From an uncultured Bacilli bacterium (GTDB taxonomy: Bacteria; Bacillota_I; Bacilli_A; RF39; UBA660), in the NCBI GenBank assembly GCA_947632205.1, contig CANROK010000001.1, forward strand, positions 4,682 to 68,681: DNA of 64,000 nt, written 5' to 3'. The notes under the pieces were generated by a model, which made no database searches, had not been told where the DNA came from, and saw only the letters and a list, made by a program, of their open reading frames with translations. Both the position numbers and the translations under genes were made by a program. Positions 2,702 to 64,000 of the stretch are shown here, piece by piece. Numbering within the stretch: position 1 is the stretch's first letter; each line of letters starts with the position of its first letter.

Positions 2702-3645
2702 TGAAAAAGATATCAATTGTTGTACCATGTTATAATGAAGAAGAAAGTTTACATTACTTTTATGAGGAAATGCAAAAAATAGTTAAACAAATGCAAAAGA
2801 AAGCTAAATTTGAATTTGTCTTTGTTAATGATGGATCTAAAGATAAAACTTTAGAAATACTTAGAGAACTTGCTAAAAAAGATAAGAGTGTAAGATATAT
2901 TTCATTTTCGAGAAATTTTGGTAAAGAAGCTGGTATTTTAGCAGGACTTAAAGCCACAACGGGTGATTATATAGCTACGATGGATGCTGATTTACAAGAT
3001 CCACCAGCATTATTATTAGAAATGTTTGATACTCTTCAAAAAGGTGAGTATGATTGTTGTGCTGCGAAACAAACATCAAGAATTGGTTATTCACCATTAA
3101 GAAAATTTTTTACAAAAAGTTTTTATAAAATAATTAATAAACTTTCTAATATTGAAATGGTTGATGGTGCAAGGGATTTTCGTTTATTTACAAGACAGAT
3201 GTTAGATTCAATCTTAGAATTAGAAGAGTATAATCGTTATTCCAAAGGTATTTTTAGTTTTGTTGGTTATAATACAAAATGGATTGAATTTGAAAATCAA
3301 GAAAGAGTAGCAGGAACTACGAAATGGAATTTTTGGAAATTGTTTGTTTATGCCATTGAAGGAATTATATCTTTTTCAACATCACCATTATTAATAAGTG
3401 CTTTTATTGGAGTTTTATTTTGTTTAATTGCCTTTATTATGGTTATTGTAATAATTGTTAAAACATTAGTTTTTGGTGATCCCGTTAGTGGATGGCCATC
3501 ACTTGCTTGTATTATATTATTTGTATCAGGAATTCAATTATTTTGTCTTGGAATAATGGGATTATATTTATCTAAGACATATCTTGAAACGAAAAAAAGA
3601 CCAATTTATATAATAAAAGAAACTGAAAAAGATTTGGAAAAATAA
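2701..3645 (+). CDS. GT2 family glycosyltransferase, GtrB/CsbB/DPM1-like (polyprenol-phosphate sugar transferase)
   Basis: It has the GT2 motifs VVPCYNEE and VNDGSKDKT, a DAD..DP motif, and two C-terminal TM helices typical of GtrB. There is a good RBS (GGAGTGAAAG). The start overlaps the upstream stop (TAATG). Confidence 0.85.
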   Translation: MKKISIVVPCYNEEESLHYFYEEMQKIVKQMQKKAKFEFVFVNDGSKDKTLEILRELAKKDKSVRYISFSRNFGKEAGILAGLKATTGDYIATMDADLQDPPALLLEMFDTLQKGEYDCCAAKQTSRIGYSPLRKFFTKSFYKIINKLSNIEMVDGARDFRLFTRQMLDSILELEEYNRYSKGIFSFVGYNTKWIEFENQERVAGTTKWNFWKLFVYAIEGIISFSTSPLLISAFIGVLFCLIAFIMVIVIIVKTLVFGDPVSGWPSLACIILFVSGIQLFCLGIMGLYLSKTYLETKKRPIYIIKETEKDLEK

Positions 3646-3646
3646 T

Positions 3647-4582
3647 ATGGATAAAATAGCAGTATTAATACCTTGTTATAATGAAAGTAAAACTATTAAG
3701 AAGGTAATTAATGATGTAAAAAAAGAGTTGCCTAATGCAACAATATATGTTTATGATAATAATTCCACGGATGGAACTGATATAATTGCTAAAAAATGTG
3801 GTGCCAAAGTAATGTATGAATATAAGCAAGGAAAAGGTAATGTTTTAAGAAGTATGTTTCGGCATATTGATGCAGAGTGTTATTTACTTATTGATGGTGA
3901 TGATACTTATAATTGTAAGAATGCTAAAGAAATGTGTGATTTAGTACTAAATGGAAGAGCAGACATGGTTATTGGAGATAGATTATCCGGAACATATTTT
4001 CAAGAAAATAAAAGATTGTTTCACAATTTTGGCAATAAAATGGTAAGATATTTAATTAATAAAATATTTAAAAGTAATGTTAAAGATATTATGACTGGTT
4101 ATAGGACATTTAGTTATGAATTTGTTAAAAGTTTTCCTGTATTATCTAAAGGATTTGAAATAGAAACAGAAATGACTATTCATGCCATCGATAAAAATTT
4201 TAAAATAGTAGAGTTGCCAGTTAATTATCGTAATCGGCAAGTAGGTAGTGTTTCAAAATTAAATACTTATAGTGATGGTATTAAAGTTTTGAAAACAATT
4301 GGGACATTATTTAAAGAATATAAACCAACTTTATTTTTTAACTTAATTGCTTTAATGTTTTTAATTGTAACGATAATATTAGGAATACCACCTGTAATAG
4401 AATATTTCGAAACGGGCTTAGTTTTAAAATTTCCAAGATTAATTGTGGCTTCAGTATCTTTAGTAATAAGCATTTTATTATGTATAAGTGGTATTATTTT
4501 AGAGGTTATTGCTAAAAAGCATAAACAACTATATGAATTATATTTAAATTTATTAAGAGAAAATAATAAGAAGTTCAAATAA
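3647..4582 (+). CDS. second GT2 glycosyltransferase, GtrB/DPM1-like
   Basis: It has the GT2 motifs IPCYNE, DNNSTDGT and DGDDTY and two C-terminal TM helices. It starts 2 nt after the previous stop. Confidence 0.8.
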   Translation: MDKIAVLIPCYNESKTIKKVINDVKKELPNATIYVYDNNSTDGTDIIAKKCGAKVMYEYKQGKGNVLRSMFRHIDAECYLLIDGDDTYNCKNAKEMCDLVLNGRADMVIGDRLSGTYFQENKRLFHNFGNKMVRYLINKIFKSNVKDIMTGYRTFSYEFVKSFPVLSKGFEIETEMTIHAIDKNFKIVELPVNYRNRQVGSVSKLNTYSDGIKVLKTIGTLFKEYKPTLFFNLIALMFLIVTIILGIPPVIEYFETGLVLKFPRLIVASVSLVISILLCISGIILEVIAKKHKQLYELYLNLLRENNKKFK

Positions 4583-25974: not shown

Positions 25975-25984
25975 AATTGTAACA

Positions 25985-26105
25985 TCTTATAAAGAGTGAT
26001 GGAGGGACTAGCCCAATGAAGTCACACCAACCTATTTAATTAGGTGGTAATGCTAGAGCTATAAGATAACTTTGAAACATTCAAGTTATCTTGGGTGTTT
26101 TTTTA
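25985..26105 (+). promoter_or_regulatory. SAM-I (S-box) riboswitch with intrinsic terminator
   Basis: It has the P1 pairing tcttat/ataaga, conserved GGAGGGACTAGCCCAATGAAG...CACCAACC...GGTGGTAATGC core blocks, and a terminator agataactt/aagttatct + T8. It lies directly upstream of metK. Confidence 0.85.
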
Positions 26106-26135: not shown

Positions 26136-27158
26136 ATGAAATTATATAGTAACGAAATTGTTTTTAGAGGTCATCCTGATAAAGTGTGTGACCAAATAAG
26201 TGATGCTCTTTTAGATGCTTACTTAAAAGGTGATAAACAAAGTAGATGTGGTATTGAAGTAATGGGAGGTAAAGGTAAAATATTTATTACGGGAGAAGTA
26301 ACAAGTAAAAGTAATATTAATGTTCAAGATATTGTTAAAAGAGTTTTAGAAGATGTTGGTTATGATAGTAATGTAGAAATTATTAACAATTTAGGAGTAC
26401 AAAGTAGTGATATCGCGATGGGTACAAATGATTTAGTTAATGGTGCTGGTGATAATGGCATGATGTTTGGTTATGCTTGTCGGGATAATGATAAATACTT
26501 ACCAACAGCCATGGTAATCTTACAAAAATTTAGTGAAGAGTATGATAATTTAAGAAAACAAGATAAAAGATTCTTACCTGATGGCAAAGCAGAAATTACT
26601 GGTATATATGATGATAATAATCATCTTTCTAAAATAAAAACATTTACAATATGTTATCAAAATACGGAAGAAGAAAGAAGTAAAACTGATCAAATTTTAA
26701 AAAATTTAGTAAATAAAATATGTAAACAATATAATATTGAAGTTTTAGAGTATTTAATTAATCCAACGGGAAGATTTAAAATTGGTGGCTTTATGGGAGA
26801 TGCTGGTCTTACAGGAAGAAAAATAGTTGTTGATAGTTATGAATCTTTTGCACCCGTTGGGGGAGGAGCTTTCTCTGGAAAAGACCCAACTAAAGTTGAT
26901 CGAAGTGGAGCATATAAAGCCAGAAGTTTAGCAGTAAGAGTATTAGAAGAAAATAAAGATATAAATACTTGTGAAATTCAATTATCTTATGCCATAGGAA
27001 AAGAAGAACCACTGGCAATATACATTAAAACCGATAAAGGAGATTTAGAACCAACGAAAGAAATGTATGAAGAATGTAAAGTTAAAAATATAATAAATGA
27101 TTTAAATTTATTAAATATTAGTTATGAAGAAAAAGCTAGATTTGGTCATTTTAGATAA
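26136..27158 (+). CDS. metK: S-adenosylmethionine synthetase (short form, 340 aa)
   Basis: It has GHPDKVCDQISDA, GAGDNGMMFGYA, INPTGRFKIGGFMGDAGLTGRKIVVD, GGGAFSGKD and a C-terminal FGHF motif. Confidence 0.9.
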   Translation: MKLYSNEIVFRGHPDKVCDQISDALLDAYLKGDKQSRCGIEVMGGKGKIFITGEVTSKSNINVQDIVKRVLEDVGYDSNVEIINNLGVQSSDIAMGTNDLVNGAGDNGMMFGYACRDNDKYLPTAMVILQKFSEEYDNLRKQDKRFLPDGKAEITGIYDDNNHLSKIKTFTICYQNTEEERSKTDQILKNLVNKICKQYNIEVLEYLINPTGRFKIGGFMGDAGLTGRKIVVDSYESFAPVGGGAFSGKDPTKVDRSGAYKARSLAVRVLEENKDINTCEIQLSYAIGKEEPLAIYIKTDKGDLEPTKEMYEECKVKNIINDLNLLNISYEEKARFGHFR

Positions 27159-31524: not shown

Positions 31525-31562
31525 AATTAACACTTCCTTTGCCTAAATATTATAAACTAATT

Positions 31563-31945
31563 ATTATTTAATAACAATAAAAAATACGTTATAATTTAGT
31601 AGAGGCGACTAATAAATGAATGCAGTAAGTATAGCTAAAGCTCAAAATAATTTTTATAAATTGGTGTCAGATGTAAATGCCGGATTGGGTCCAATTACGA
31701 TTGTTAATAATAAAGGTAAAAATGCCGTTTTAATATCAGAAAGTGAATGGAAAAATATTGAAGAAACTTTATTTTTATCAAATATACCAGATTATATTGA
31801 AAATATTAATAGTATAAAAAATAACGAAAATTGGAATACTGCTTTAGAATATAAAAGAGATGAAGAATGGTAATTATTAAATAACCGAAAATAAACATGT
31901 TTTTATTTTCTTTTTTTGTCAAAAAATAACGTTTTTAACATATAG
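31563..31945 (+). repeat. copy 1 of a ~375-bp direct repeat (promoter + phd/yefM gene + downstream palindrome)
   Basis: It is near-identical to 32858..33238. The coding part is 100% identical, and the 5' flank has a handful of mismatches. Confidence 0.85.
31616..31873 (+). CDS. Phd/YefM-family type II antitoxin (copy 1), no cognate toxin downstream
   Basis: MNAVSIAKAQNNFYKLV...AVLISESEWKNIEETLFL has the same residue pattern as E. coli YefM (Y.EA..N......V....P..I......AV..S..E....EET..L). There is a TTATAAT -10 and RBS AGAGGCGA. Confidence 0.75.
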   Translation: MNAVSIAKAQNNFYKLVSDVNAGLGPITIVNNKGKNAVLISESEWKNIEETLFLSNIPDYIENINSIKNNENWNTALEYKRDEEW

Positions 31946-32189
31946 ATAAATTTTTATTGACATAATTATAATTTATTATATAATAAATTAACTAATTTAA
32001 TAAATTGTATTATTGCTTTTAAGGATTAAATTAGTTATAATTTTTATAGAAGAAAATTTTTATTTGTTCTTCTACATTTTACGTGATAGAAAAGAGTAAT
32101 TTGTATTAGTTGCTCTTAGTCTAAACATATACTTTGAGCATCTATGAATTAATAGTGCTCATTTTTAATAATTAAATTAAATTAGAAAG

Positions 32190-32372
32190 ATGAAGGAGAA
32201 TATGGAAAACGAAAAAAAAGATTTTAGAAGTAATGAGTTAAAAAAAAGAGTAAAAATTTTAATGGAAAAATCTAAAAAATTGAAGCTTATTAAGCCGCAT
32301 ACATTAGCATTTAAAGAAAATCCAACAGAAGTTGAAGAACATAAAGGAAAATTAATTGCATATAGAAAGTAG
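32190..32372 (+). CDS. small basic protein (56-60 aa), candidate antitoxin partner of the downstream MazF-like gene
   Basis: RBS GAAGGAG is present. The stop is 8 nt before the next gene's ATG. No fold was recognised. Confidence 0.4.
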   Translation: MKENMENEKKDFRSNELKKRVKILMEKSKKLKLIKPHTLAFKENPTEVEEHKGKLIAYRK

Positions 32373-32379
32373 GAGCAAT

Positions 32380-32757
32380 ATGAAATATGAGGTCGGTGAT
32401 ATAGTTTTTGTATCAAAATATAAATACGATAATGGAGAAAAAGGAAAAAATCATTTATTTGTTATAATTGATGAAGAAGAAAATTTGGTTCCTGTTGAAT
32501 ATTTTGGCATGATAGTTTCTTCGAGAATTGAAAAATCAAAAGAAAATTCGAATTTTAAATTTAATGAACCTTTAAGGAAAAATAAAATAAATAAATTAAA
32601 TGTTGATAGCATAGTAAAATGCGATCAAATTTACAAAATACCTTCAAAAAATATTCAATTTAAAATAGGTAGAGTTGATATTGATGATTACATAAGATTT
32701 ATGGATGCTTATAATATAGCTTTGCAAGAAATAGAAGATAAATTACAAACTGTATAA
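32380..32757 (+). CDS. divergent MazF/PemK/EndoA-family endoribonuclease toxin-like protein
   Basis: It aligns with B. subtilis EndoA along its length: GDIVFV~GDVYFA, G-E-G at the same spacing, FVII~LVIQ, SSRIEKSK~TAQIQKAK, DSIVKCDQIYKI~DSVILLEQIRTI and IGRVD~ITHLD. The track start is a TTG; the start is placed at the ATG at 32380 after AGGAG. Confidence 0.6.
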   Translation: MKYEVGDIVFVSKYKYDNGEKGKNHLFVIIDEEENLVPVEYFGMIVSSRIEKSKENSNFKFNEPLRKNKINKLNVDSIVKCDQIYKIPSKNIQFKIGRVDIDDYIRFMDAYNIALQEIEDKLQTV

Positions 32758-32857
32758 TTAAAACAAAAAATCTTTGTGAAAAAAGATTTTTTTAATTCTT
32801 CATAAGTTTTAGTGTTTATTATTTCATTTTCAATTGTGTGTTAAAAGTAGTTTAATA

Positions 32858-33238
32858 ATTATTTAATAACAATAAAAAATACATTATAATTAAGTGGAGG
32901 TGACTAATAAATGAATGCAGTAAGTATAGCTAAAGCTCAAAATAATTTTTATAAATTGGTGTCAGATGTAAATGCCGGATTGGGTCCAATTACGATTGTT
33001 AATAATAAAGGTAAAAATGCCGTTTTAATATCAGAAAGTGAATGGAAAAATATTGAAGAAACTTTATTTTTATCAAATATACCAGATTATATTGAAAATA
33101 TTAATAGTATAAAAAATAACGAAAATTGGAATACTGCTTTAGAATATAAAAGAGATGAAGAATGGTAATTATTAAATAACCGAAAATAAACATGTTTTTA
33201 TTTTCTTTTTTTGTCAAAAAAGCATGTTTTTTAATGAC
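32858..33238 (+). repeat. copy 2 of the ~375-bp direct repeat
   Basis: See copy 1. Confidence 0.85.
32911..33168 (+). CDS. Phd/YefM-family type II antitoxin (copy 2, identical protein)
   Basis: The 85-aa product is identical to 31616..31873. RBS GGAGGTGA is present. Confidence 0.75.
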   Translation: MNAVSIAKAQNNFYKLVSDVNAGLGPITIVNNKGKNAVLISESEWKNIEETLFLSNIPDYIENINSIKNNENWNTALEYKRDEEW

Positions 33239-33287
33239 TATAAAAGTCATAAATGATATAATAAATCTATAAGAGGGTAGATGGGTT

Positions 33288-47500: not shown

Positions 47501-48889
47501 ACAAAAGTATTATTTGGAGTAGATAATGTATATAGGGCCGGAACAATTGGAACAGTAGCAGATAAAACAGCTTATGGTTTTGTTAAATATTATTGTGAAG
47601 ATAAAAATATTACGATGCGTAATATTGAAATCGAAAGGTTAGCTCAAGGATGTGTTGGTGTAAAAAGAACAACTGGTCAACATCCTGGTGGTATCGTTGT
47701 TATTCCTGGTTATATGGATGTTTATGATTTTACTCCATATCAATATCCAGCTGAAGATGTTGATGCCAACTGGCGAACTACTCATTTTGATTACCATGCG
47801 ATTGATCAAGATGTATTAAAATTAGATATCTTAGGTCATACTGATCCAACTCAACTTAGAATGTTACAAGATTTAACGGGAATTGATGTTAAAACAGTGC
47901 CCTTTGATGATAAAGAAACAATGGGATTATTCTTATCCCCAGAACCCCTTGGCGTAACAAAAGAACAAATAATGAATGATACTGGTACTCTTGGAGTTCC
48001 GGAATTTGGAACTAACTTTACAATTGGTATGCTTAAAGATACAAAACCAACAACCTTTGCGGAACTTATTAAAATATCAGGACTTTCTCATGGTACTGAT
48101 GTATGGCTTGGTAATGCCCAAGAACTTATTAAAAATAATATTGTTCCTTTTAAAGAAGTTATTGGTTGTCGTGATGATATTATGGTTCATTTAATTCAAT
48201 GTGGTATGGAACCAATAAAAGCGTTTAAAATTATGGAGTTTGTTCGTAAAGGTAAAGCTAGTAAAGAACCAGATGCTTGGGTACAACATAAAAAGACTAT
48301 GGAAGATGCTGGTATACCTGATTGGTATATTGAATCTTGTGGAAAAATTAAATACATGTTTCCAAAAGCCCATGCAGCTGCCTATGTTATGAGTGCTTTT
48401 CGTATTGCTTATTTTAAAGTTCATTATCCTGCTGAATATTATGCTTCCTATTTTTCAACAAGATTTGATATTTTTGAAGTAGAAACAATGATTAATGGAT
48501 ATGATGCAATTAAAGCAAGAATGACAGATATCATAAGTAAAGGTGATGAAGCTACAAGTAGAGAAAAAGAATTATTAGAAACTTTAAAATTGGCCTTAGA
48601 AGCAACGGCCAGAGGATTCAAATTTGGCAATATTGATATTAAGAAAAGTGATGCTAAAAATTTCGTTATAGATGAAGATAAAAAAACACTTATTCATCCA
48701 TTTAGAGCATTAGAAGGTCTAGGTGGAGCAGTTGCTAAACAAATCGTTGATGAAAGAGAAAAGAAAGAATATTTTTGTGTAGAAGATTTTCAAGAGAGAG
48801 GTAAAGTTAATGTTACATCTATGGAAAAATTACGTAACCTAGGAGTATTTAATAATTTACCAGAATCAGCTCAATTAAGTTTATTTTAG
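44546..48889 (+). CDS. polC: PolC-type DNA polymerase III
   Basis: It has a DEDDh exonuclease motif (FVVFDTETTGF), a PHP motif (HAHTMMSAMDG), a Zn-finger (CPKC...CPKC) and a polymerase core. The length is 1447 aa. It starts 2 nt after the dnaE stop. Confidence 0.95.
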   Translation: MEEVKRFLSSINYTYTDEFSNTEIEKVVLNREKQLYTVYLKSKNVIAYDLISNLFRCAKNGINGTDNCYIIIHYENINEDDIIHYVKEILGSIIFEHPSLTGLEKCFKELNQHVINLEVGNEAEKKTLKRFEKKLIQELENYGIGTFAVNILVNENLNTEIKKEIETSKEVVLEKKEESPVCFGIHKDGEVTLIKNIISEVKGIIIEGYIFGVDTSERKFTSAKTGRSGTTYIVNLKVSDKTDSFLVKFVRFNEKEYKAICRGSKEGNWVRIYGDVEMDNYARQMVINGKGLEIIPSKDLAIKDEEEEKRFELHAHTMMSAMDGVIDAKKLVKFAKKLGHKGVTVTDHDCLQSYPDLYHAVCDINKGIENEEDKFKVIYGAEMSIVNNDNELIFNLKDYDLLNTEFVVFDTETTGFTPYNDQMIEIGAVKIKNGVVTDRFDELINPNRKLPQKIVDLTCITDEMLQDKDSEENVVKRFKEFIKDMPMVAHNAKFDIGFMTAAYNKYNLGEFTNTVIDTMGMARMLYPEWKNHKLSTLVKNLEVPWDENLHHRGDYDSEGTAIAFYKMCKVLSNRNIETTTKLHDSIDEQALLKFSRPFHMCVLVQNKVGLKNLFKLISFANTKYLFKGDQAKLPRNELNLHREGLLFGSGCVNGEIFNAAFTKEDEELAKMMQYYDYIEVQPPEVYSFLVGMDDSPVKSLMDIYTHIKRIVKVAEEAGVLVCATSDAHHLTREDKIYRDIIVNQRFNGKLHPLNRSGIVVPDMHFYTTKEMLDAFSFLGEEKAKEIVVTNPNIIASKCEIVEVIIETGGVPFSPRIENSKEIVKDMVYTRAKEWYGDPIPENISDRIEQELKGIIGGGFDVIYLIAQKLVKKSNDDGFLVGSRGSVGSSFVATMMGITEVNPLPSHYRCPKCKYSIFKNDKGEDLAIEYGIGFDLPDKDCPKCGTKMIKDGEDMPFATFLGFNADKVPDIDLNFSDLNQAAAHEYTKVLFGVDNVYRAGTIGTVADKTAYGFVKYYCEDKNITMRNIEIERLAQGCVGVKRTTGQHPGGIVVIPGYMDVYDFTPYQYPAEDVDANWRTTHFDYHAIDQDVLKLDILGHTDPTQLRMLQDLTGIDVKTVPFDDKETMGLFLSPEPLGVTKEQIMNDTGTLGVPEFGTNFTIGMLKDTKPTTFAELIKISGLSHGTDVWLGNAQELIKNNIVPFKEVIGCRDDIMVHLIQCGMEPIKAFKIMEFVRKGKASKEPDAWVQHKKTMEDAGIPDWYIESCGKIKYMFPKAHAAAYVMSAFRIAYFKVHYPAEYYASYFSTRFDIFEVETMINGYDAIKARMTDIISKGDEATSREKELLETLKLALEATARGFKFGNIDIKKSDAKNFVIDEDKKTLIHPFRALEGLGGAVAKQIVDEREKKEYFCVEDFQERGKVNVTSMEKLRNLGVFNNLPESAQLSLF

Positions 48890-48890
48890 G

Positions 48891-48915
48891 AAGGTCATAT
48901 TGACCTTTTTTCTTT
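48891..48915 (+). terminator. intrinsic terminator aggtca-tat-tgacct + T-run
   Basis: The hairpin is followed by TTTTTT right after polC. Confidence 0.6.
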
Positions 48916-49034
48916 TTTTAAGTCAAATTATTTTTCAACTTTTTTTATTTTTATGGTTATTTTATTTTACAATTACTAAGTTAATTTAATCTGCAAATCT
49001 ATACTTGATTTCACACATTTCAAATTAAAAATTA

Positions 49035-49062
49035 TTGACACTCGGGGGGGGTATTATATAAT
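49035..49062 (+). promoter_or_regulatory. consensus promoter TTGACA-16-TATAAT with a G8 homopolymer in the spacer
   Basis: The sequence TTGACActcGGGGGGGGtattaTATAAT is identical to 63534..63561. The ATG lies 28 nt downstream of the -10, with RBS AAAGAGGAAAA. Confidence 0.6.
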
Positions 49063-49089
49063 TAAAATATATAAAATAAAGAGGAAAAT

Positions 49090-51588
49090 ATGTATAATAA
49101 GAGATATAAGAAAAGTAATAAAAAGATATATGGAATGTGTACGATAATAGTATTGCTAATATATACAATATCAATATGTTATTCAACATTACAACAACAA
49201 CTAGAAATAAATGGCTTAGTAAAAGTAAGAAGACAAGAGAATATAAGAGTAACAGGAGTAGAAGTAGAAAGTAGTACAAAAGCCACATCAAATTGGGAAG
49301 AATATGATGTAAAGAATGTAAGTGCAGGAATAACTTTACCAAATGCAGAATCAAGTATAACATATAAAGTAAAAGTAACAAACTTTGGAAATGTTGATAT
49401 GGGAATATATAATATCGATGGATTAGATAATAGATTAACATATACAATAGAAGGATATGAATTAAAAGATAAAATAGAAAAAAGCGGAAATAAAAGAGAA
49501 TTTAAAATAACAATTAAATATAAAGATGGAAGTTATGATGCAAGTAATACTGATTATAATATCTTATTAAATTTTGAATTTAGAGCATATTATAAAGTAA
49601 CATATAAGAATTTTCCAAGTGGAACAGATAATTTACCAAAAGAAGTAATGGAAAGAGACAAATTAATTGTAGATTTAAAAGATTATCAAAATGCAAGATA
49701 TAAGATAACAGAAAATGAAATAACTTTACCAAGTGATAGATATACATATATCAATAATGAATTAACAATATCATCAGTTGAAGGAGATATAGAGATAACA
49801 TATAAGAAGATACCAGATATAGAATTAGTATTAAGGGATAATGATAGTAATAAAACATTAAGTGAAGATATCCAAGCAGGGATGTATAGATATCAAGGAT
49901 CATATGAACAAGTTAAAAATAACTATATATGTTTTGGAACAAGTAGCAAAGATGAATGTTTAAACAATAAAGATAAGTATATGTACCGAATAATAGGAAT
50001 AACAGAAGATGGACAATTAGAACTAATCAAAATGACAGCATTAAATGATACAGGAGTACAATGGAATAGTGTAGATCAAAGTACATGGAATACAGATGTA
50101 AATAAAAATGAAAAAATAGTTGATGCTGATGTACCATGGAGTAAAAGTGATTTATATAAAAGACTAAATGGCTTATCAGATGATAACATATTTATAAATA
50201 GTACTAGTTATGATTATATGCAAAAAGATTCAATATGGTATAACAAAATAGCTGATACAAATTGGTTAAGTGGCCAAATTTATACAACTGGACAAGTTAG
50301 TTATGTTGATTTGTTTAAACTACCAACGATATATGAAATAGAATCTGGGCAAAATAAATCTGCTTATGCTGAAGAAGCAAGTCCATATTACTATAATGGT
50401 GGAAATACAAATATAGTAGTTAATACAGAGCCATACATGACAAGAAGAACTAAAGATAGTGTAACTTGTGAAAGATATGATGAGATAAGTAAAGTAACAT
50501 GCTATAAAAACATTAATGAAAAATTTAATGATAAAGTAACATCAAAAATTGGCTTAATGCATGCATATGAATTTGATTATTCAGTAGAAAAGAATGGAAA
50601 AGATTGCTTAAGAAGTACAATATGGAATGGTAATGAACAAACAGGAACATATAAAGATGGATTGGATGGCGAAAAATGTAAAGCAAGTTGGATGCATATA
50701 AGTAATAATGATACAACAGTTACTGGTTATGCTGTGCATGAATGGACTATGTCTCGAGCTGGATTTATTTATGCAAACGACCATTTCGATGACTGGTACA
50801 TTCGTTCAAAGGGATATGTAAATAGTTGGGATGTTAGGGTTGGAACCCTTTCTACTCGTCCAGTATTCTACTTAACAACTGATATTATCTTAAAAGAAGA
50901 AACAACAGGAACAAAAGATAATCCGTATATTATAGATATGTATGAAATGAATGGTTATATTGATGATTTAAGTGGAAATAATAATTATGGAATAGCTAAT
51001 GTTGCTTCTTGGGATAGTGATGGTATAACTACTAGTGATAAACAAACGAGAGGTTTTATAAATTGTGGACTTGAAAATCATGATTTTGAAAATACCATAA
51101 CAATGATAACAAGAGTAAAATTTAATGATTTAGTTTCCGGACAATATTATTTTGGCAATTGGCAAGGTGCTGGTGGTGGATTATATTTATCTAATTCTTC
51201 TTTAAAATTTGAACAACATATAGGTGGTCATTACGAAAAAGTAGAAAGTAACTATAATATTAGTTTAAATACATACTATACAATTGTTGGTGTTTATAAT
51301 GGTAGTGAAATGAGTATATATATTGATGGGCAAAAAATAGGAAGTAGCGTAAATGGTAATATAAAACCTTGTAATATGCCAATATTATTAGGTGCAAATC
51401 CAGAAGTCAATATGCCGTATTATAACTATTCTTATACCACTTTTACAGATGCTTTAATATTTGATACAGCATTAAGTGATGCAGAAATACAAAAAGATTT
51501 TAGTAATGAAATAGATAAAGATAATGTAATAAAAAACTATGTTAACAACCAAGATAAAAAATTACTACTTTATTATAGATTTGTATAA
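49090..51588 (+). CDS. large secreted/surface protein (832 aa): basic N-terminus + signal-anchor helix, conserved beta-rich N-domain, C-terminal LamG/concanavalin-like domain
   Basis: The first ~140 aa and the 5' UTR are paralogous to 63589..64000. The C-terminal ~200 aa resemble Laminin_G_3-type lectin folds by recollection. The composition is secreted-type (N/T/Y/G-rich). Confidence 0.55.
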   Translation: MYNKRYKKSNKKIYGMCTIIVLLIYTISICYSTLQQQLEINGLVKVRRQENIRVTGVEVESSTKATSNWEEYDVKNVSAGITLPNAESSITYKVKVTNFGNVDMGIYNIDGLDNRLTYTIEGYELKDKIEKSGNKREFKITIKYKDGSYDASNTDYNILLNFEFRAYYKVTYKNFPSGTDNLPKEVMERDKLIVDLKDYQNARYKITENEITLPSDRYTYINNELTISSVEGDIEITYKKIPDIELVLRDNDSNKTLSEDIQAGMYRYQGSYEQVKNNYICFGTSSKDECLNNKDKYMYRIIGITEDGQLELIKMTALNDTGVQWNSVDQSTWNTDVNKNEKIVDADVPWSKSDLYKRLNGLSDDNIFINSTSYDYMQKDSIWYNKIADTNWLSGQIYTTGQVSYVDLFKLPTIYEIESGQNKSAYAEEASPYYYNGGNTNIVVNTEPYMTRRTKDSVTCERYDEISKVTCYKNINEKFNDKVTSKIGLMHAYEFDYSVEKNGKDCLRSTIWNGNEQTGTYKDGLDGEKCKASWMHISNNDTTVTGYAVHEWTMSRAGFIYANDHFDDWYIRSKGYVNSWDVRVGTLSTRPVFYLTTDIILKEETTGTKDNPYIIDMYEMNGYIDDLSGNNNYGIANVASWDSDGITTSDKQTRGFINCGLENHDFENTITMITRVKFNDLVSGQYYFGNWQGAGGGLYLSNSSLKFEQHIGGHYEKVESNYNISLNTYYTIVGVYNGSEMSIYIDGQKIGSSVNGNIKPCNMPILLGANPEVNMPYYNYSYTTFTDALIFDTALSDAEIQKDFSNEIDKDNVIKNYVNNQDKKLLLYYRFV

Positions 51589-51771
51589 AAGATAGTATTT
51601 CTAAGATTAAAAATATTGTTGGTAACTATTTAGTTATCAACATTTTTTAAATATAAATAATATATCAAAAATAAAATATTTTTTAATATTTTAATAAAGA
51701 TAAGGGCTTTAAAAATATCTTGTTAATAATTAAAATAAACATTATAATATACATGAAAGGAGAATTCTATA

Positions 51772-56743: not shown

Positions 56744-56798
56744 TGCTTCTTCTTTTTATGAAAATAAAATCGAAAGGGTGAAAAAAGGGGGGTGAAAT

Positions 56799-56930: not shown

Positions 56931-57464
56931 ATGAAGAACAAAATAATATCTTCAATTATAGCTTCAGTAGTAGCCATTACAACAATAACAAGTGTAGCAT
57001 GTACAACTTTAAATAATCAAGATAATTTTCAAGTAATATCAAATTCAAATATGGTTTTATATGATGATAATATGGATTATATAAGTACTATTAATGATTA
57101 TATAACTAATGACAAAGAATTAAGTGATATGGAGTATAAAAAAGCCGTATATATGTATTTATATAATACAAATGTATCAATGGATGAATATAAGAGTGAA
57201 TTACATACATTACTTTTATGTAGTATTAATCCAAGTTGTGTTGATAATTTTGATACTTTGTTTGTTAATTTAATTAATGCTTTAAATAATAAAAATTTAA
57301 ATGTTCAAGTTAGAGAAGAATTATCTCGTGTTTATCTACCATTAGCGGCATATTTTCATGAGTTAGAATGTAATGATCCAAGTCATCTTAAAAATTATAA
57401 TCCGGATATTAATGTTTATGAATGTGATACATTAAAAGAAGAATATAGAAAGAGAAGCAGATAA
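56931..57464 (+). CDS. secreted Cys-containing hypothetical protein (signal peptide)
   Basis: It has an N-terminal signal sequence MKNKIISSIIASVVAITTITSVA and RBS AAAGGGGAAA. Confidence 0.5.
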   Translation: MKNKIISSIIASVVAITTITSVACTTLNNQDNFQVISNSNMVLYDDNMDYISTINDYITNDKELSDMEYKKAVYMYLYNTNVSMDEYKSELHTLLLCSINPSCVDNFDTLFVNLINALNNKNLNVQVREELSRVYLPLAAYFHELECNDPSHLKNYNPDINVYECDTLKEEYRKRSR

Positions 57465-59762: not shown

Positions 59763-59790
59763 AAGCGAAGATTTTATTTCTTCGCTTTTG
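59761..59790. terminator. bidirectional terminator agcgaaga/tcttcgct
   Basis: An 8-bp stem flanked by A-rich and T-rich tracts sits between convergent genes. Confidence 0.6.
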
Positions 59791-60178
59791 TATTTTTACT
59801 TTTTTTAGTACTAGTAGATGATTTAGTATTTTTAGGATTATTTTTTTGATAAGAAATATTGTTTTTATAGTTTCTTGGTTTATGATTTGGTTTCTTTTTT
59901 GTATTATTAGGTCTTTTAGTACTTCTTTTCTTAACTTTTGGTTTTTCTTCTTTAATAATTTCCTTTTCCTTTTTATCATTAGTTGGTTTTTTCTTTTCTG
60001 CTTTTTTCTCCTTTGACTTTTTAATTGTTTTCTTTTTATCTTCTATTTTCTCATTATTATTTTTTTTATCTAATATGTATTCTACTGAAAAGATTATTAT
60101 AAATGAAATTAAAAAGAAAAAATAAGCAGAAATAAGTATAATAAAAAATATATCAACATTATCAAAATTCTTGTTCAT
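59774..60178 (-). CDS. membrane-anchored protein with extremely lysine-rich basic tail
   Basis: It has an N-terminal TM helix followed by a K/E/T/N-rich tail (KKKPTNDKKEKE..., KKKPNHKPRNYKNN). RBS AAAGGGATGA is present. Confidence 0.45.
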   Translation of the reverse strand: MNKNFDNVDIFFIILISAYFFFLISFIIIFSVEYILDKKNNNEKIEDKKKTIKKSKEKKAEKKKPTNDKKEKEIIKEEKPKVKKRSTKRPNNTKKKPNHKPRNYKNNISYQKNNPKNTKSSTSTKKSKNTKAKK

Positions 60179-60326: not shown

Positions 60327-62060
60327 ATGAAGAATAAATTATTAATTAAATTTTTTTTATTTTTTCTATTATTCATATTTAATATGAATATTTGCCATGC
60401 GACAATTTATCGTGCTAAACTTGTGGGAAATGATGTTAATTTAAGAAGTGGACCAGGTACTAATTATTCTTCTCTTAAAACATTAAGTAAAGATTCAGAG
60501 TATACAATGGTTAATGATACTCTTTATCCTGATGAAGGTGGCTGTGGTAATGGTTGGTATAAAATTTATTATGAAGCCAGTGCTACAGGTTATATCTGTA
60601 GTAATTATATTACAGTTTCAACTTTAGTTTTTAAAGAAGAAGCCACTACTGAGTGTGAAATGGCTTTAAAAGAAGCTGGTTTTCCGGCATCTTATTGGCC
60701 TGGCTTATGTAATTTAAAAGAAATGCATCCTACATGGGAATTTAGCCCTGTTTTTACTGGTTTAGATTGGAGTAATGCTGTTGATTCGGAAAGTGAATGT
60801 GGAATAAGTTATATAGCTAGTAGTATTCCTACTAATATAGATAATACTTGTAAAAATCCCTATACTAAAACATGGTATCCAGCATCTTCAACCGCGGTTG
60901 CTTATTATATGGATCCTCGAAATTGGTTTTCAGAAAATACGATTTTTCAATTTGAATATTTAAGATATAGTGATTTACTCAAAGATAAATATATTGATGC
61001 TACTTCTAATATTCTTAAAAATGCTGAATTTTATAAATATCATTTAAATATTGGTAATAATCTTGGTGAAATTATTAATGAAGCGGGATTAAAGGCAAAT
61101 ATAAGTCCTATTTTTGTTGGTGGAAGAATACTACAAGAACTGGGAAATGCCACTTCTTTATATAATCTTTATAGTGGTGTTTATGAAGAAAGTGAAGGAC
61201 AATTTAAAGGATATTATAATTTTTATAATTTTGGAGTAACAGATAGTTGTGCCACTAGTAGGGGTACAACTATATGTGGACTTGAATATGCAAAGAAAAA
61301 TAATTGGAATAGCGTTTATGATGCTATATATGGAGGAGCTAATCAAATTGCATCATCATATATCGCTGTTGGTCAATATAATGGTTATTTACAAAAATTT
61401 AATGTTGTACCTACTCAAGCATCAAAACTATATGGTCATCAATATATGACTAACATTGCTGCTCCATCAAGTGAAGCTAAGACTACATATAATTCATATA
61501 AAAATTTAGGAGTTTTAGAAAGTGCTTTTGTTTTTTATATACCAATTTATAATAATATGGATGATTCTTTTTATACAGAAGGTAATGGGGCAGTTGATAC
61601 ACCAGATGATAATGAAAAATCAACATTAGATATTAATACTATAATTGTAAGTAGTGGTTATAAATATCAAAGTGGAACTATTTCCGGTATTGCTCAAAAT
61701 ACAGATATTAAAACAGTAAAGAGTAATTTAGAAAGTATTGCGGGAGCTGGTAATGTTTTGATTAAAACTAAAGATGATCAATTAGTAACTGATGGTTTAA
61801 TTGGAACAGGATTTAAAATAACTATTAAAAATCAAACTTTAGAAGAAACTTTAATGGTGGTAATACATGGTGATACTTCAGGAGATGGAATAGTAAATGC
61901 CCTAGATTTATTACAAGTTCAAAAAAATATTTTAGGCACTTATACATTAAATGATGTTTATCTAAATGCGGGTGATACTTCGAAAGATGGAATAGTAAAT
62001 GCCCTAGATTTATTACAAATTCAAAAAAGTATATTAGGAACATATACAATTGAATATTAG
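60327..62060 (+). CDS. secreted cell-wall hydrolase-like protein: signal peptide, SH3b-like domain, glucosaminidase (GH73)-like domain, C-terminal dockerin (2 repeats)
   Basis: It has a signal peptide and an SH3_3-like region (YRAKLVGNDVNLRSGPGT...GWYKIYY). A glucosaminidase-like block follows (ILQELGN...YNFYNFGV...YAKKNNW..YLQKFN). Two dockerin repeats follow, GDTSGDGIVNALDLLQVQKNILG and GDTSKDGIVNALDLLQIQKSILG (Ca-binding D-x-S-x-D-G-x-V-N-x-x-D). Confidence 0.6.
   Translation: MKNKLLIKFFLFFLLFIFNMNICHATIYRAKLVGNDVNLRSGPGTNYSSLKTLSKDSEYTMVNDTLYPDEGGCGNGWYKIYYEASATGYICSNYITVSTLVFKEEATTECEMALKEAGFPASYWPGLCNLKEMHPTWEFSPVFTGLDWSNAVDSESECGISYIASSIPTNIDNTCKNPYTKTWYPASSTAVAYYMDPRNWFSENTIFQFEYLRYSDLLKDKYIDATSNILKNAEFYKYHLNIGNNLGEIINEAGLKANISPIFVGGRILQELGNATSLYNLYSGVYEESEGQFKGYYNFYNFGVTDSCATSRGTTICGLEYAKKNNWNSVYDAIYGGANQIASSYIAVGQYNGYLQKFNVVPTQASKLYGHQYMTNIAAPSSEAKTTYNSYKNLGVLESAFVFYIPIYNNMDDSFYTEGNGAVDTPDDNEKSTLDINTIIVSSGYKYQSGTISGIAQNTDIKTVKSNLESIAGAGNVLIKTKDDQLVTDGLIGTGFKITIKNQTLEETLMVVIHGDTSGDGIVNALDLLQVQKNILGTYTLNDVYLNAGDTSKDGIVNALDLLQIQKSILGTYTIEY
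61869..62052 (+). repeat. tandem duplication (period ~102 nt) encoding the two dockerin calcium-binding segments
   Basis: The stretch ggtgatacttc..gatggaatagtaaatgccctagatttattacaa is repeated with a few substitutions. Confidence 0.8.
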
Positions 62061-62074
62061 AAGGAGGATAAATA

Positions 62075-63475
62075 ATGAAAAAAGTTTTAACAACAATAAT
62101 ATTATTTTTAGCTTTCATACCTATAATTGTAAATGCTACATCTGGTAAAATATCAGTAAGTAGTACTAGTACAGTAGTGGTAGGAAATAAAGTTACAGTA
62201 ACAGTTACTTTAAGTGGTAGTGATATTGGTAGTTGGCAAATGACTTTAAATTATGATAAAAGTTATTTACAACTAACAAATAGTTCAGCTGAAGCTGGTG
62301 GTACAGTTATGGCTTCTTCTGTTACTAAACCAATAACTTCTAAAAAATATACTTTTACATTTAAAACATTAAAAAAAGGAAGTACAACAGTATCTGTAAA
62401 AAGTTATGAAGCATATGCTTTTTCTGATATGCAAGAGATTAATCTTACCAGTGGTAGTAAAACTATTAAAATAATTACGCAAGAAGAACTTGAAGCTAGT
62501 TATTCTAAAGATAATAATTTAAAAAGTTTAAGTGTTGAGGGATATGAACTTGATAAAACTTTTGATAAAAATACTTTAGATTATAGTGTTAATGTTAATG
62601 AAGGAACAACAAGTATTAAAATAAATGCAACAGCAAATGATAAAAAAGCATCAATAAATGGTGATGGCGTAGTTAATGTTACTGCTGGTACTAATGTTTT
62701 TAAAATAGTTGTCAGGGCAGAAAATGGTAGTGAAAAAATATATAATTTGACAATTAATGTTATTGATCAAAATCCTATAAATGTTACTATTAATAATAAT
62801 AATTATACAGTTATTAAATTAAGAGATAATTTTGAATGTTCTGGTTCTTTTAGTGAAAGTACAGTAAAAATAAATGATATTGATATTCCATCATGTTATA
62901 ATGAAAATCTAAATTATCAATTAGTAGGATTAAAACTTAGTGATGGAACAATAGAAAGTTATATATATGAAAATAATAATTATAAAAAATATGTTGAAGT
63001 CATTGGAACAAGTTTAAAATTAATAATTAATGATTATAATGGAGAAATAGAAGGACTTACAAAATATGTAGAAGAAATAGATGGAACAGAATATAATGTC
63101 TTTAAAAAGAATGCTAACTCAAAATATTATATAGTATATGGTACTAATATAGAAAATGGTAAGAAAGATTTTTATTCTTATGATACTATTAGTAAAACAT
63201 TTAGTTTATATGATAAAGAGGAAGCAAAAGAAAATAATAATTTAAATAATTTATATTTATATGTAATTATTGCTTTTGGTAGTTGTTTATTTCTAGCCAT
63301 CATTTGTGTTATATCTTTATTAAATAAAATTAGTCGTATTAAAAAATTAAATTTACAAATGCAAAAAGATATTGTGAAAAAAGAAGAGATAATTAAACAA
63401 GCAGAAGAAGAAAAAGAACAAGTAAATAATTCAAAAAAAGAAAAGAAAACTACTAAGAAAAAGAAAAAGCAATAA
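62075..63475 (+). CDS. membrane-anchored cohesin-domain protein with cadherin-like beta-sandwich domain and C-terminal TM anchor + K/E-rich cytoplasmic tail
   Basis: It has a signal peptide and a cohesin-like pattern (KVTVTVTLSGSDIGSWQMTLNYDKSYLQL...G). A cadherin-like block follows (LKSLSVEGYELDKTFDKNTLDYSVNV...NVFKIVVRAENGSEKIYNLTIN). The C-terminal TM helix is LYLYVIIAFGSCLFLAIICVISLL. RBS AAGGAGG is present. Confidence 0.55.
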   Translation: MKKVLTTIILFLAFIPIIVNATSGKISVSSTSTVVVGNKVTVTVTLSGSDIGSWQMTLNYDKSYLQLTNSSAEAGGTVMASSVTKPITSKKYTFTFKTLKKGSTTVSVKSYEAYAFSDMQEINLTSGSKTIKIITQEELEASYSKDNNLKSLSVEGYELDKTFDKNTLDYSVNVNEGTTSIKINATANDKKASINGDGVVNVTAGTNVFKIVVRAENGSEKIYNLTINVIDQNPINVTINNNNYTVIKLRDNFECSGSFSESTVKINDIDIPSCYNENLNYQLVGLKLSDGTIESYIYENNNYKKYVEVIGTSLKLIINDYNGEIEGLTKYVEEIDGTEYNVFKKNANSKYYIVYGTNIENGKKDFYSYDTISKTFSLYDKEEAKENNNLNNLYLYVIIAFGSCLFLAIICVISLLNKISRIKKLNLQMQKDIVKKEEIIKQAEEEKEQVNNSKKEKKTTKKKKKQ

Positions 63476-63491
63476 AATATACGACTACAAA

Positions 63492-63521
63492 ATGTGCGAA
63501 TTTTTGTTCGTACATTTTTTT
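63492..63521 (+). terminator. intrinsic terminator atgtgcgaa/ttcgtacat (one G-U) + T7
   Basis: A 9-bp stem is followed by a T-run. Confidence 0.6.
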
Positions 63522-63533
63522 GACTCAAAATTA

Positions 63534-63561
63534 TTGACACTCGGGGGGGGTATTATATAAT
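63534..63561 (+). promoter_or_regulatory. second copy of the TTGACA-ctc-G8-...TATAAT promoter
   Basis: It is identical to 49035..49062. Confidence 0.6.
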
Positions 63562-63588
63562 TAAAATATATAAAATAAAGAGGAAAAT

Positions 63589-64000
63589 ATGTATAATAAG
63601 AGATATAAGAAAAGTAATAAAAAGATATATGGAATGTGTACGATAATAGTAGTGTTAATATATACAATATCAATATGTTATTCAACATTACAACAACAAC
63701 TAGAAATAAATGGCTTAGTAAAAGTAAGAAGACAAGAGAATATAAGAGTAACAGGAGTAGTAGTAGATAGTAGTATAAATGCCACATCAAATTGGGAAGA
63801 ATATGATGTAAAGAATGTAAGTGCTGGAATAAGTTTACCAAATGAAGATTCAAGTATAACATATAATGTAAAAGTAACAAACTTTGGAAATGTTGATATG
63901 GGAATATATAATATTGATGGTTTAGATGATAGATTAACATATACAATAACAGATTATACATTAAAAGAGAAAATAGAAAAAAGTGGACATAAAAAAGAAT
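63589..64000 (+). CDS. paralog of the 49090 surface protein (3' truncated by window end)
   Basis: The first ~137 aa are about 90% identical to 49090..51588 (MYNKRYKKSNKKIYGMCTIIV.LIYTISICYSTLQQQLEINGLVKVRRQENIRVTGV...). The 5' UTR is identical. Confidence 0.55.
   Translation, partial: MYNKRYKKSNKKIYGMCTIIVVLIYTISICYSTLQQQLEINGLVKVRRQENIRVTGVVVDSSINATSNWEEYDVKNVSAGISLPNEDSSITYNVKVTNFGNVDMGIYNIDGLDDRLTYTITDYTLKEKIEKSGHKKE

Follow-up and report, generated by a model that had tools for sequence, protein, structure and literature searches.

The window analysed here, a stretch of 64,000 nt (64 kb) from one contig of an uncultured Bacilli bacterium, carries two genes, copy A and copy B, which begin with a common 5′ cassette and encode members of one family of putative exported proteins. 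Copy A is complete, and copy B runs past the end of the window, with its full product (P0124) encoded on the same 71,256-bp contig as the product of copy A (P0001). The two copies lie 14.5 kb apart in different flanks. In blastn comparisons, positions 49028–49501 and 63527–64000 were 94.9% identical over 474 nt, and no third copy of this sequence was found in the 64 kb. The similarity ends abruptly 7 nt 5′ of the −35 hexamer. The original prediction, made from the sequence of this stretch, had claimed an identical promoter and ribosome-binding site in both copies, and the copies are indeed the same, base for base, from 62 nt 5′ of the ATG through coding nt 63. It had also claimed a conserved 5′ coding block of ~420 nt, which we recovered, at an identity higher than the “about 90%” given: the copies differ at 24 of their 411 common coding bases (94.2% identity), and the proteins are 88% identical across 137 amino acids (aa). 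Sixteen codons differ non-synonymously and five synonymously. The proposed clustering of substitutions in a short patch held for four of the 16 replacements, at residues 58–64, and the remainder are at residues 82–93 and 114–136. Read against the secondary structure of the predicted model, the replacements would fall mostly in loops.

Both promoters are perfect TTGACA-16 nt-TATAAT sites, which occur three times in the window against 0.23 expected, and their spacer reads CTC-GGGGGGGG-TATTA, with a tract of eight guanines (G8) inside it. G8 runs were observed twice in the window against 0.11 expected from shuffles (window GC content, 25%), and the two tracts in the spacers are the only runs of at least seven G or at least five C in the whole 64 kb. 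A homopolymer of about 7 nt or more between the −35 and −10 hexamers, one of the marks of phase-variable porA/opc/vlp-type promoters, is present in both A and B. Since the tract lies in the spacer, its length sets the distance between the hexamers, which is 16 nt with G8, the canonical 17 nt with G9, and 15 nt with G7. The common front end, with its G8 promoter and export/anchor module, suggests random up- or down-switching of every copy, and nothing else in the locus hints at variable expression as strongly as the spacer tract; these promoters would then be subject to phase variation. An invertible promoter was considered and rejected, as no inverted repeats are common to both copies, and a tandem repeat scan of the region gave nothing relevant as a switch other than the homopolymer. 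The third perfect TTGACA-16 nt-TATAAT site (31957–31984) is located in a gene-poor stretch (31534–33287), where the sole large open reading frame (ORF) has 133 aa. Separately, the third-longest G run in the window, a G6 run at 56787–56792, lies 6 nt 5′ of a TTGACA-17 nt-TATACT promoter, which precedes a small ORF (56931–57464) with a lipoprotein-like signal (...ITSVAC) and may be sensitive to the repeat tract.

Six promoters of the family were readable, namely those of A and B and four from two other assemblies, one of which represents a different species whose N-terminal modules (N-modules, described below) are ~63% identical. A 30-nt core, ATTGACACTC-G8-TATTATATAATT, is invariant in all six promoters from the three assemblies, and the DNA 5′ of this core is unrelated between copies, a clear sign of selection on an element that moves together with its gene. 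When homologues were searched again, with copy B as the query, the only return was P0220, whose promoter (L041, a 643-bp fragment from an independent ENA assembly) also contains G8. No further promoter copies were matched in a pattern scan of the metagenome collection, and a protein-based scan of metagenomes yielded 12 loci, none of which had a poly-G run. The terminators that the original prediction had placed before each copy were both recovered as hairpins followed by U runs (Table 1); the one 5′ of copy B was missed by a simple scanner and found by RNA folding.

Table 1 Positions of the two gene copies, their signals and domains in the window, and of related features in homologous loci (L numbers)
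Feature	Position	Strand	Basis
Intrinsic terminator of polC, directly 5′ of copy A	48888..48910	+	10-pair stem and T run; fold −9.5 kcal/mol, z −3.1
125-nt block, A and B 100% identical (promoter, leader, first 21 codons)	49028..49152	+	Alignment
Copy A promoter: −35 TTGACA (49035–49040), 16-nt spacer, −10 TATAAT (49057–49062)	49035..49062	+	12/12 consensus
G8 homopolymer in copy A spacer, candidate slipped-strand switch	49044..49051	+	Homopolymer count
Shine-Dalgarno AAAGAGG, 5 nt 5′ of copy A ATG	49078..49084	+	Read from sequence; kept in all copies
ORF A, 832 aa, 100% match to database protein P0001	49090..51588	+	ORF list
N-terminal export/anchor segment, aa 1–43	49090..49218	+	Lys/Arg-rich start, hydrophobic helix, then ...SICYS/TLQQQLEING
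N1 beta-sandwich domain, aa ~47–173, with ITYKVKVTNFGNVDMGI motif	49228..49608	+	AF2 pLDDT >90
N2 small beta domain, aa ~174–250	49609..49839	+	AF2 model; two allelic types among paralogues
M domain, aa ~256–620, enlarged C-type-lectin-like, DUF6273-like fold	49855..50949	+	AF2 pLDDT 89, pTM 0.88
LamG / concanavalin-A-like lectin domain, aa 663–801	51076..51492	+	Pfam Laminin_G_3 (PF13385), E 3.1e-12
Intrinsic terminator 3′ of ORF A	51617..51642	+	11-pair stem and T run; fold −13.8 kcal/mol, z −5.1
Terminator hairpin and U run 5′ of copy B	63489..63522	+	13 pairs, then U7; fold −14.1 kcal/mol, z −4.4
Copy B promoter: TTGACA-16 nt-TATAAT, G8 at 63543–63550	63534..63561	+	12/12 consensus
ORF B, runs past window end	63589..64000	+	Full product P0124, 455 aa
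Coding poly-G tracts in homologues	L006 2947–2957; L007 2947–2958; L012 ~2945–2955		n-region codons
Peptidase/DUF5305 cluster in relatives	L008 676–3014; L014 1845–2978 and 5156–6193		

Poly-G tracts also occur in homologues from other gut metagenome-assembled genomes (MAGs), here within the 5′ coding region, in codons of the signal-peptide n-region. The runs are G9 in L006 and L012, G10 in L007, and G5 in L011, L018 and L029. L012 is in frame from its Shine-Dalgarno ATG. L006 and L007 are paralogues of one MAG that have their promoter and 5′ end in common (92.5% identity). Counted from the Shine-Dalgarno ATG conserved in L011, L012 and L018, both carry one surplus G, and their downstream ORFs are intact despite this frame offset (491 and 894 codons, respectively). 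L009, which comes from the same MAG and lies inside a peptidase/DUF5305 operon, has no tract. The presence of poly-G at two different control points of one family is the best comparative argument for a switch role.

The family is larger than the two copies in the window. In this species or close strains there are at least six near-identical front ends, those of A, B (P0124), P0002 (813 aa), P0005 (554 aa), P0268 (895 aa) and P0220 (a fragment), and four more were found in a sister species, in agreement with the original view of a paralogous family whose members diverge distally but keep the 5′ promoter, the ribosome-binding site and the N-terminal module. Within the collection, the closest genome, Lapin-017__bin12, with N-modules ~63% identical to that of A, harbors at least four paralogues (L002 to L005), and L005 follows polC, as copy A does. 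All of the relatives belong to MAGs of rabbit, goat, rumen or human gut origin, labelled as Bacilli, Tenericutes, Mycoplasma or Erysipelotrichaceae.

Exchange between the copies, which had been raised along with the family itself, is supported by a clear mosaic in the segment-wise identities. Residues 1–50 are 98–100% identical among the paralogues of A, versus 78% to the sister species. The N2 domain falls into two types, one in A and P0002 and the other in B and P0268, with 91% identity within a type and ~54% between types. At residues 256–330, A and P0002 are 89–91% identical to P0003/P0004 of the other species, versus 52–58% to their own paralogues. This mosaic indicates that the cargo types are older than the species split and that the 5′ cassette was homogenised within species. 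The contrast between a homogenised cassette and cargo that is orthologous across species indicates concerted evolution by gene conversion of the 5′ cassette.

We then consider what the cassette and its cargo encode. The N-terminus of A belongs to a family with the consensus ...LSIGYSAF..L.I.G in its alignments. In the AlphaFold2 (AF2) model, residues 11–43 form a helix, and the confidence is low at residues 37–46, just past the site where signal peptidase would putatively cleave. For the two beta domains that follow (N1 and N2, together the N-module, residues ~47–250), sequence and Foldseek fold searches gave no Pfam, NCBIfam or PDB relative, and the profiles of both domains had no sequence match in the PDB. 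The M domain behind them is characterised by the motifs GMYRYQG, YICFG, KYMYRIIGIT, RPVFYL and NPYII, and is common to 112 of the 120 listed homologues, often in tandem; A itself has no match to Pfam DUF6273 (PF19789) at E ≤1. The C-terminal LamG/concanavalin-like domain of the original prediction was confirmed by Laminin_G_3, with a score of 47.3 bits against a gathering cut-off of 27.6. Neither Pfam nor NCBIfam detected a catalytic domain or motif in A, and there is no HExxH. The domain searches therefore describe A as an export/anchor module with two binding domains of lectin type behind it and no sign of a catalytic one. As a separate observation on copy B, P0124 ends “...TSWIAPKKNRNRCR” in the middle of the C-type-lectin-like domain, where its paralogues run at least 100 aa further; this early stop inside the M domain, in DNA beyond the window, may reflect a frameshift, a pseudogene or a second switch.

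A profile search with the N-module against 1.84 billion representatives yielded 2124 clusters, 471 of them at E ≤1e-30, for a family of ~2100 clusters counted at 50% identity. The module is mostly N-terminal, in proteins of 155–1325 aa, and is in tandem in some. The cargo among 77 members scanned includes DUF6273, DUF285, Flg_new, ricin-B, LamG, LRR, GLUG, dockerin and an ALK/LTK glycine-rich domain, with Pfam DUF6273 matched directly in eight of them (best E 5.6e-31). The cargo of this family is adhesin-type.

The N-domain had been described as loosely reminiscent of TasA/camelysin proteins, a resemblance that failed as a statement of membership and stood as one of function. A had no Pfam match to TasA/camelysin (Peptidase_M73) at E ≤1 and none in NCBIfam, hhalign of the N-module profile with TasA gave a probability of 0.3% (E 0.24), and TasA was absent among the 50 matches listed by Foldseek for the N-module model; TasA membership was rejected on these four results. 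The hhalign comparison aligned only ...IGYSAF with ...GTWAAF at the signal-peptide junction, weakly and in register, using a TasA query of which the mature residues (28–261) were verified against 8AUR and of which the signal peptide (1–27) includes GTWA. The analogy holds functionally because genes for a SipW-type peptidase and a DUF5305 protein, a pair characteristic of TasA-like donor-strand pilus loci (PMC11821415, PMC12337348), adjoin the family in relatives. In the L008 and L014 clusters, the N-module gene is accompanied by small proteins of ~200 aa with the same N-terminus, GFAAF/GFATF..L.I. In L008, Peptidase_S24/S26 (E 5e-6) and DUF5305 (E 1e-9) are encoded directly 5′ of the family member, and L014 has the same layout, with a protein of 345 aa at the DUF5305 position that matches no Pfam model. 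The SipW-type peptidase domain of these relatives is a C-terminal fusion to a polytopic membrane protein of ~250 aa. At many other loci, the family gene begins right after a gene with a characteristic DUF5305-type C-terminus. A signal peptidase and a DUF5305 protein form the TafD/TafG pair of haloarchaeal Tafi loci and related archaeal clusters, and donor-strand exchange is the mode of assembly of Tafi and of TasA fibres alike (PMC11821415, PMC12337348). The L008 and L014 clusters look like a bacterial counterpart of these archaeal Taf/TasA-like pilus loci.

The explanation to which we lean, with considerable reserve, is that A and B belong to an exported, lectin-type multigene family with a portable 5′ cassette, switching by G8 slippage, and recombining cargo. 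Each gene is a stand-alone unit between terminators, with a cassette made up of a consensus sigma-70-type promoter with the G8 spacer, a Shine-Dalgarno leader, a cationic hydrophobic N-terminus and the two-domain beta module. The cargo varies behind this cassette, and in A it is the enlarged C-type-lectin-like domain (DUF6273 fold) with LamG. A SipW-like peptidase would recognise the N-terminus, the N-module would either anchor the protein or plug into a TasA-like donor-strand surface fibre, and the displayed lectin domains would bind glycans of host mucus or of other microbes. Slipped-strand mispairing would shift the length of the G8 tract, the spacer being optimal at 17 nt (G9) and poor at 15 nt (G7), and each paralogue would be turned up or down independently and reversibly. 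The common cassette would also let the paralogues recombine, reshuffling their cargo. General background on phase variation at repeat tracts is given in PMC5084427 and PMC2831843.

Several points weigh against this explanation. The promoter tract is G8 in 6/6 copies without length variation, so that its hypermutability is a conjecture, and the tract would look no different if it were a G-rich spacer of fixed length or the site of a regulator. In L006 and L007, an in-frame ATG without a Shine-Dalgarno sequence overlaps the start of the tract, its G being tract base 1; gene callers take this ATG as the start (P0128), and the two genes may simply be expressed from it. The dN/dS of 0.82 between A and B corresponds to neither clear purifying nor clear diversifying selection. 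The N-module has no significant sequence similarity to TasA, which is also absent among its 50 listed Foldseek matches, and tblastn found no sipW or DUF5305 gene in the 64-kb window; A and B would be stand-alone satellites of a system lying, if present, elsewhere in the genome. The surface location and glycan binding of the A and B proteins, and the antigenic variation that the original prediction had suggested, are themselves predictions, which we count on the same side.

The first of these points leads directly to the best surviving alternative, in which an ordinary paralogous family of secreted or surface lectin-like proteins is expressed from a strong constitutive promoter under conventional regulation, and G8 is a fixed spacer feature, such as a regulator site or DNA-shape element, whose length would not change at a useful rate. 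We regard this as possible, though the less probable account. Purifying selection would be expected to leave exactly G8 in all six promoters and to keep the core perfectly between species, as is the case. However, a G8 run is highly unexpected at 25% GC, it sits precisely where its length sets the −35/−10 spacing, and the G9 and G10 runs in the 5′ coding region of other lineages make for a recurrence that is hard to square with a specific binding site.

The fold of the M domain raised another alternative, that the proteins are not adhesins and instead attack host glycans or immunoglobulins, as secreted enzymes or as accessory subunits of enzymes, with the lectin domains targeting the substrate as in the immunoglobulin A (IgA) peptidase of T. 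ramosa. This peptidase (9qa6) is the only significant match of the M domain among solved structures in Foldseek searches of the PDB (E 2.5e-6, probability 1.00), and both LamG and C-type-lectin-like domains often accompany catalytic domains. The N-terminal domain of 9qa6 is a DUF6273 domain, enlarged and C-type-lectin-like, which is dispensable for catalysis (PMC12402451, PMC12237041). The match, for which the search output gave no target coordinates, probably falls on this N-terminal domain and not on the catalytic one; A lacks the HExxH motif. If so, the matching part of the IgA peptidase is the part that catalysis can spare (PMC12237041), and A has no catalytic domain or motif by Pfam and NCBIfam; we consider an enzymatic role improbable.

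The M-domain model also matched DUF6273 proteins of gut phages in BFVD, with E values from 4e-7 to 6e-4, and the DUF6273 fold is used in phage receptor-binding proteins (PMC10743442). Tail proteins of gut phages commonly contain DUF6273 domains. The TM-scores of the M-domain matches are low (0.34–0.41) because of large insertions in the domain. These matches would fit remnants of phage receptor-binding proteins or targets of diversity-generating retroelements (DGRs), an origin to which we give very little credence. The window is core chromosome, with dnaE, polC, a DnaB_2-domain replication gene, a dnaI-like ATPase gene, recA, an RNase Y gene, ligA, pcrA and uvrB, and polC, the DnaB_2-domain and dnaI-like genes, recA and the RNase Y gene stand in the flanks of the copies. 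Copy A is syntenic after polC in the second species, and the proteins begin with a signal/anchor sequence. The only PHROGs match was sub-threshold, over the LamG region, and a phage origin was rejected on the housekeeping flanks, the absence of phage genes in the window and this single match. As for DGRs, tandem and inverted scans of the region gave no candidate template repeat, and no reverse transcriptase was found among the 20 large ORFs scanned with Pfam. Finally, an assembly artefact, with a repeat collapsed or chimerically joined in the MAG, would account for several paralogues lying at contig edges (L004, L005, L041), where repeats are expected to break assemblies, but it is scarcely credible for copies that share a contig at a distance of 14.5 kb, stand in different flanks and differ at 24 coding positions, and for a cassette present in three independent assemblies.

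Within the favoured explanation of a switchable family with a portable cassette, a bolder version can be put forward tentatively, as a conjecture we think more likely wrong than right. The N-module may be a hitherto undescribed bacterial pilin-type domain that depends on a SipW-like peptidase, so that very large lectin “adhesin-pilins” would attach to or cap TasA-like donor-strand fibres in uncultured gut Bacilli, and the poly-G switches would vary these adhesins combinatorially and stochastically, with gene conversion of the 5′ cassette keeping the set able to recombine. If true, poly-G switches arose in the stand-alone paralogues of some lineages, here in the promoter spacer and elsewhere in the 5′ coding region; to our knowledge, no repeat-tract contingency system has been described before in this part of the gut microbiota, and the family would add a new substrate class for the SipW/DUF5305 machinery.

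Other features of the window were noted in passing. Directly 5′ of copy B, at 60327–63475, are two adjacent genes for surface proteins: the product of one is secreted, with SH3_3 and a C-terminal type I dockerin, and that of the other has a Cadherin-like beta-sandwich, a C-terminal membrane anchor and a Lys-rich tail. The pair may be a dockerin protein and its anchoring partner, which would be unusual for so small an AT-rich genome. On the minus strand at 59774–60178, a 134-aa ORF without a Pfam match begins with a single membrane helix, and its tail is extremely rich in Lys (KKKTIKKSKEKKAEKKKPTNDKKEKE...). At 29–4582, a YfhO-GtrA fusion (890 aa) and, after it, two glycosyltransferases of family 2 have the look of a module for surface glycosylation. 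The only Rfam match, unrelated to A and B, is a SAM riboswitch (RF00162, 66.9 bits) at 25984–26067, 5′ of an ORF at 26136–27158.

As kinds of system, neither multigene surface families nor promoter-spacer homopolymer switches are new. What is new here is the protein family, which has no Pfam or NCBIfam match and is linked to SipW/DUF5305, together with the host lineage and the use of poly-G at two alternative control points. The uncultured, reduced-genome gut Bacilli of animals and humans are abundant, and their interaction with host surfaces is essentially unknown. The N-module of the family ties it to the SipW/DUF5305 machinery, known until now from work on Bacillus biofilm fibres and archaeal pili, and the fold of its lectin-type cargo recurs in phage receptor-binding proteins and at the N-terminus of an IgA protease from the gut. 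Poly-G in a perfect promoter, combined with gene conversion, is a surface-variation strategy of mucosal pathogens. If the switch is real, commensal “Mollicutes-like” Bacilli use contingency loci to vary adhesion, and the G-tract lengths in existing metagenomes are a marker of expression state.

Among known systems, TasA/TapA-SipW and the archaeal Taf/ABP pili resemble the family in the composition of its relatives' clusters, which contain an S26 peptidase, DUF5305 and small proteins, and the family N-terminus ...IGYS-AF resembles the TasA junction ...GTWA-AF in a weak alignment. In contrast to TasA, the family proteins have lectin cargo at the C-terminus and are of far greater size, the peptidase of the relatives is fused to a large polytopic membrane domain, and A and B stand alone, without sipW or DUF5305 within 64 kb. 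The M domain shares its fold with the DUF6273/C-type-lectin-like domains of the T. ramosa IgA peptidase and of the phage “tentaclins” (E 2.5e-6 and 4e-7, respectively), but it is larger (~365 aa), has its own motifs, and is often in tandem in homologues.

Homopolymers in promoter spacers occur in Neisseria meningitidis, as the poly-G of porA and the poly-C of opc, and in Mycoplasma hyorhinis, as the poly-A of vlp. The A/B family is like these in that a surface-protein gene has a homopolymer between its −35 and −10 hexamers, whose spacing is set by the tract, and like vlp in that several paralogues each have their own copy of the switch and a conserved 5′ region. It is unlike them in that all of its promoters (6/6 copies) have G8, the host belongs to an uncultured low-GC gut Bacilli lineage, and the proteins are unrelated to PorA, Opc and Vlp; we know of no repeat-tract switch from low-GC gut Bacilli such as these, although no literature search was aimed at one. 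With the surface families of Mycoplasma (vsa/vlp), Bacteroides and Clostridioides, the A/B family has in common a conserved expression/export cassette, divergent cargo, several copies and evidence of recombination. A and B differ from these families in having no invertible promoters and no site-specific recombinase sites, no inverted repeats common to both copies having been found. Variation in the A/B family would instead come from slippage at the repeat tract together with gene conversion.

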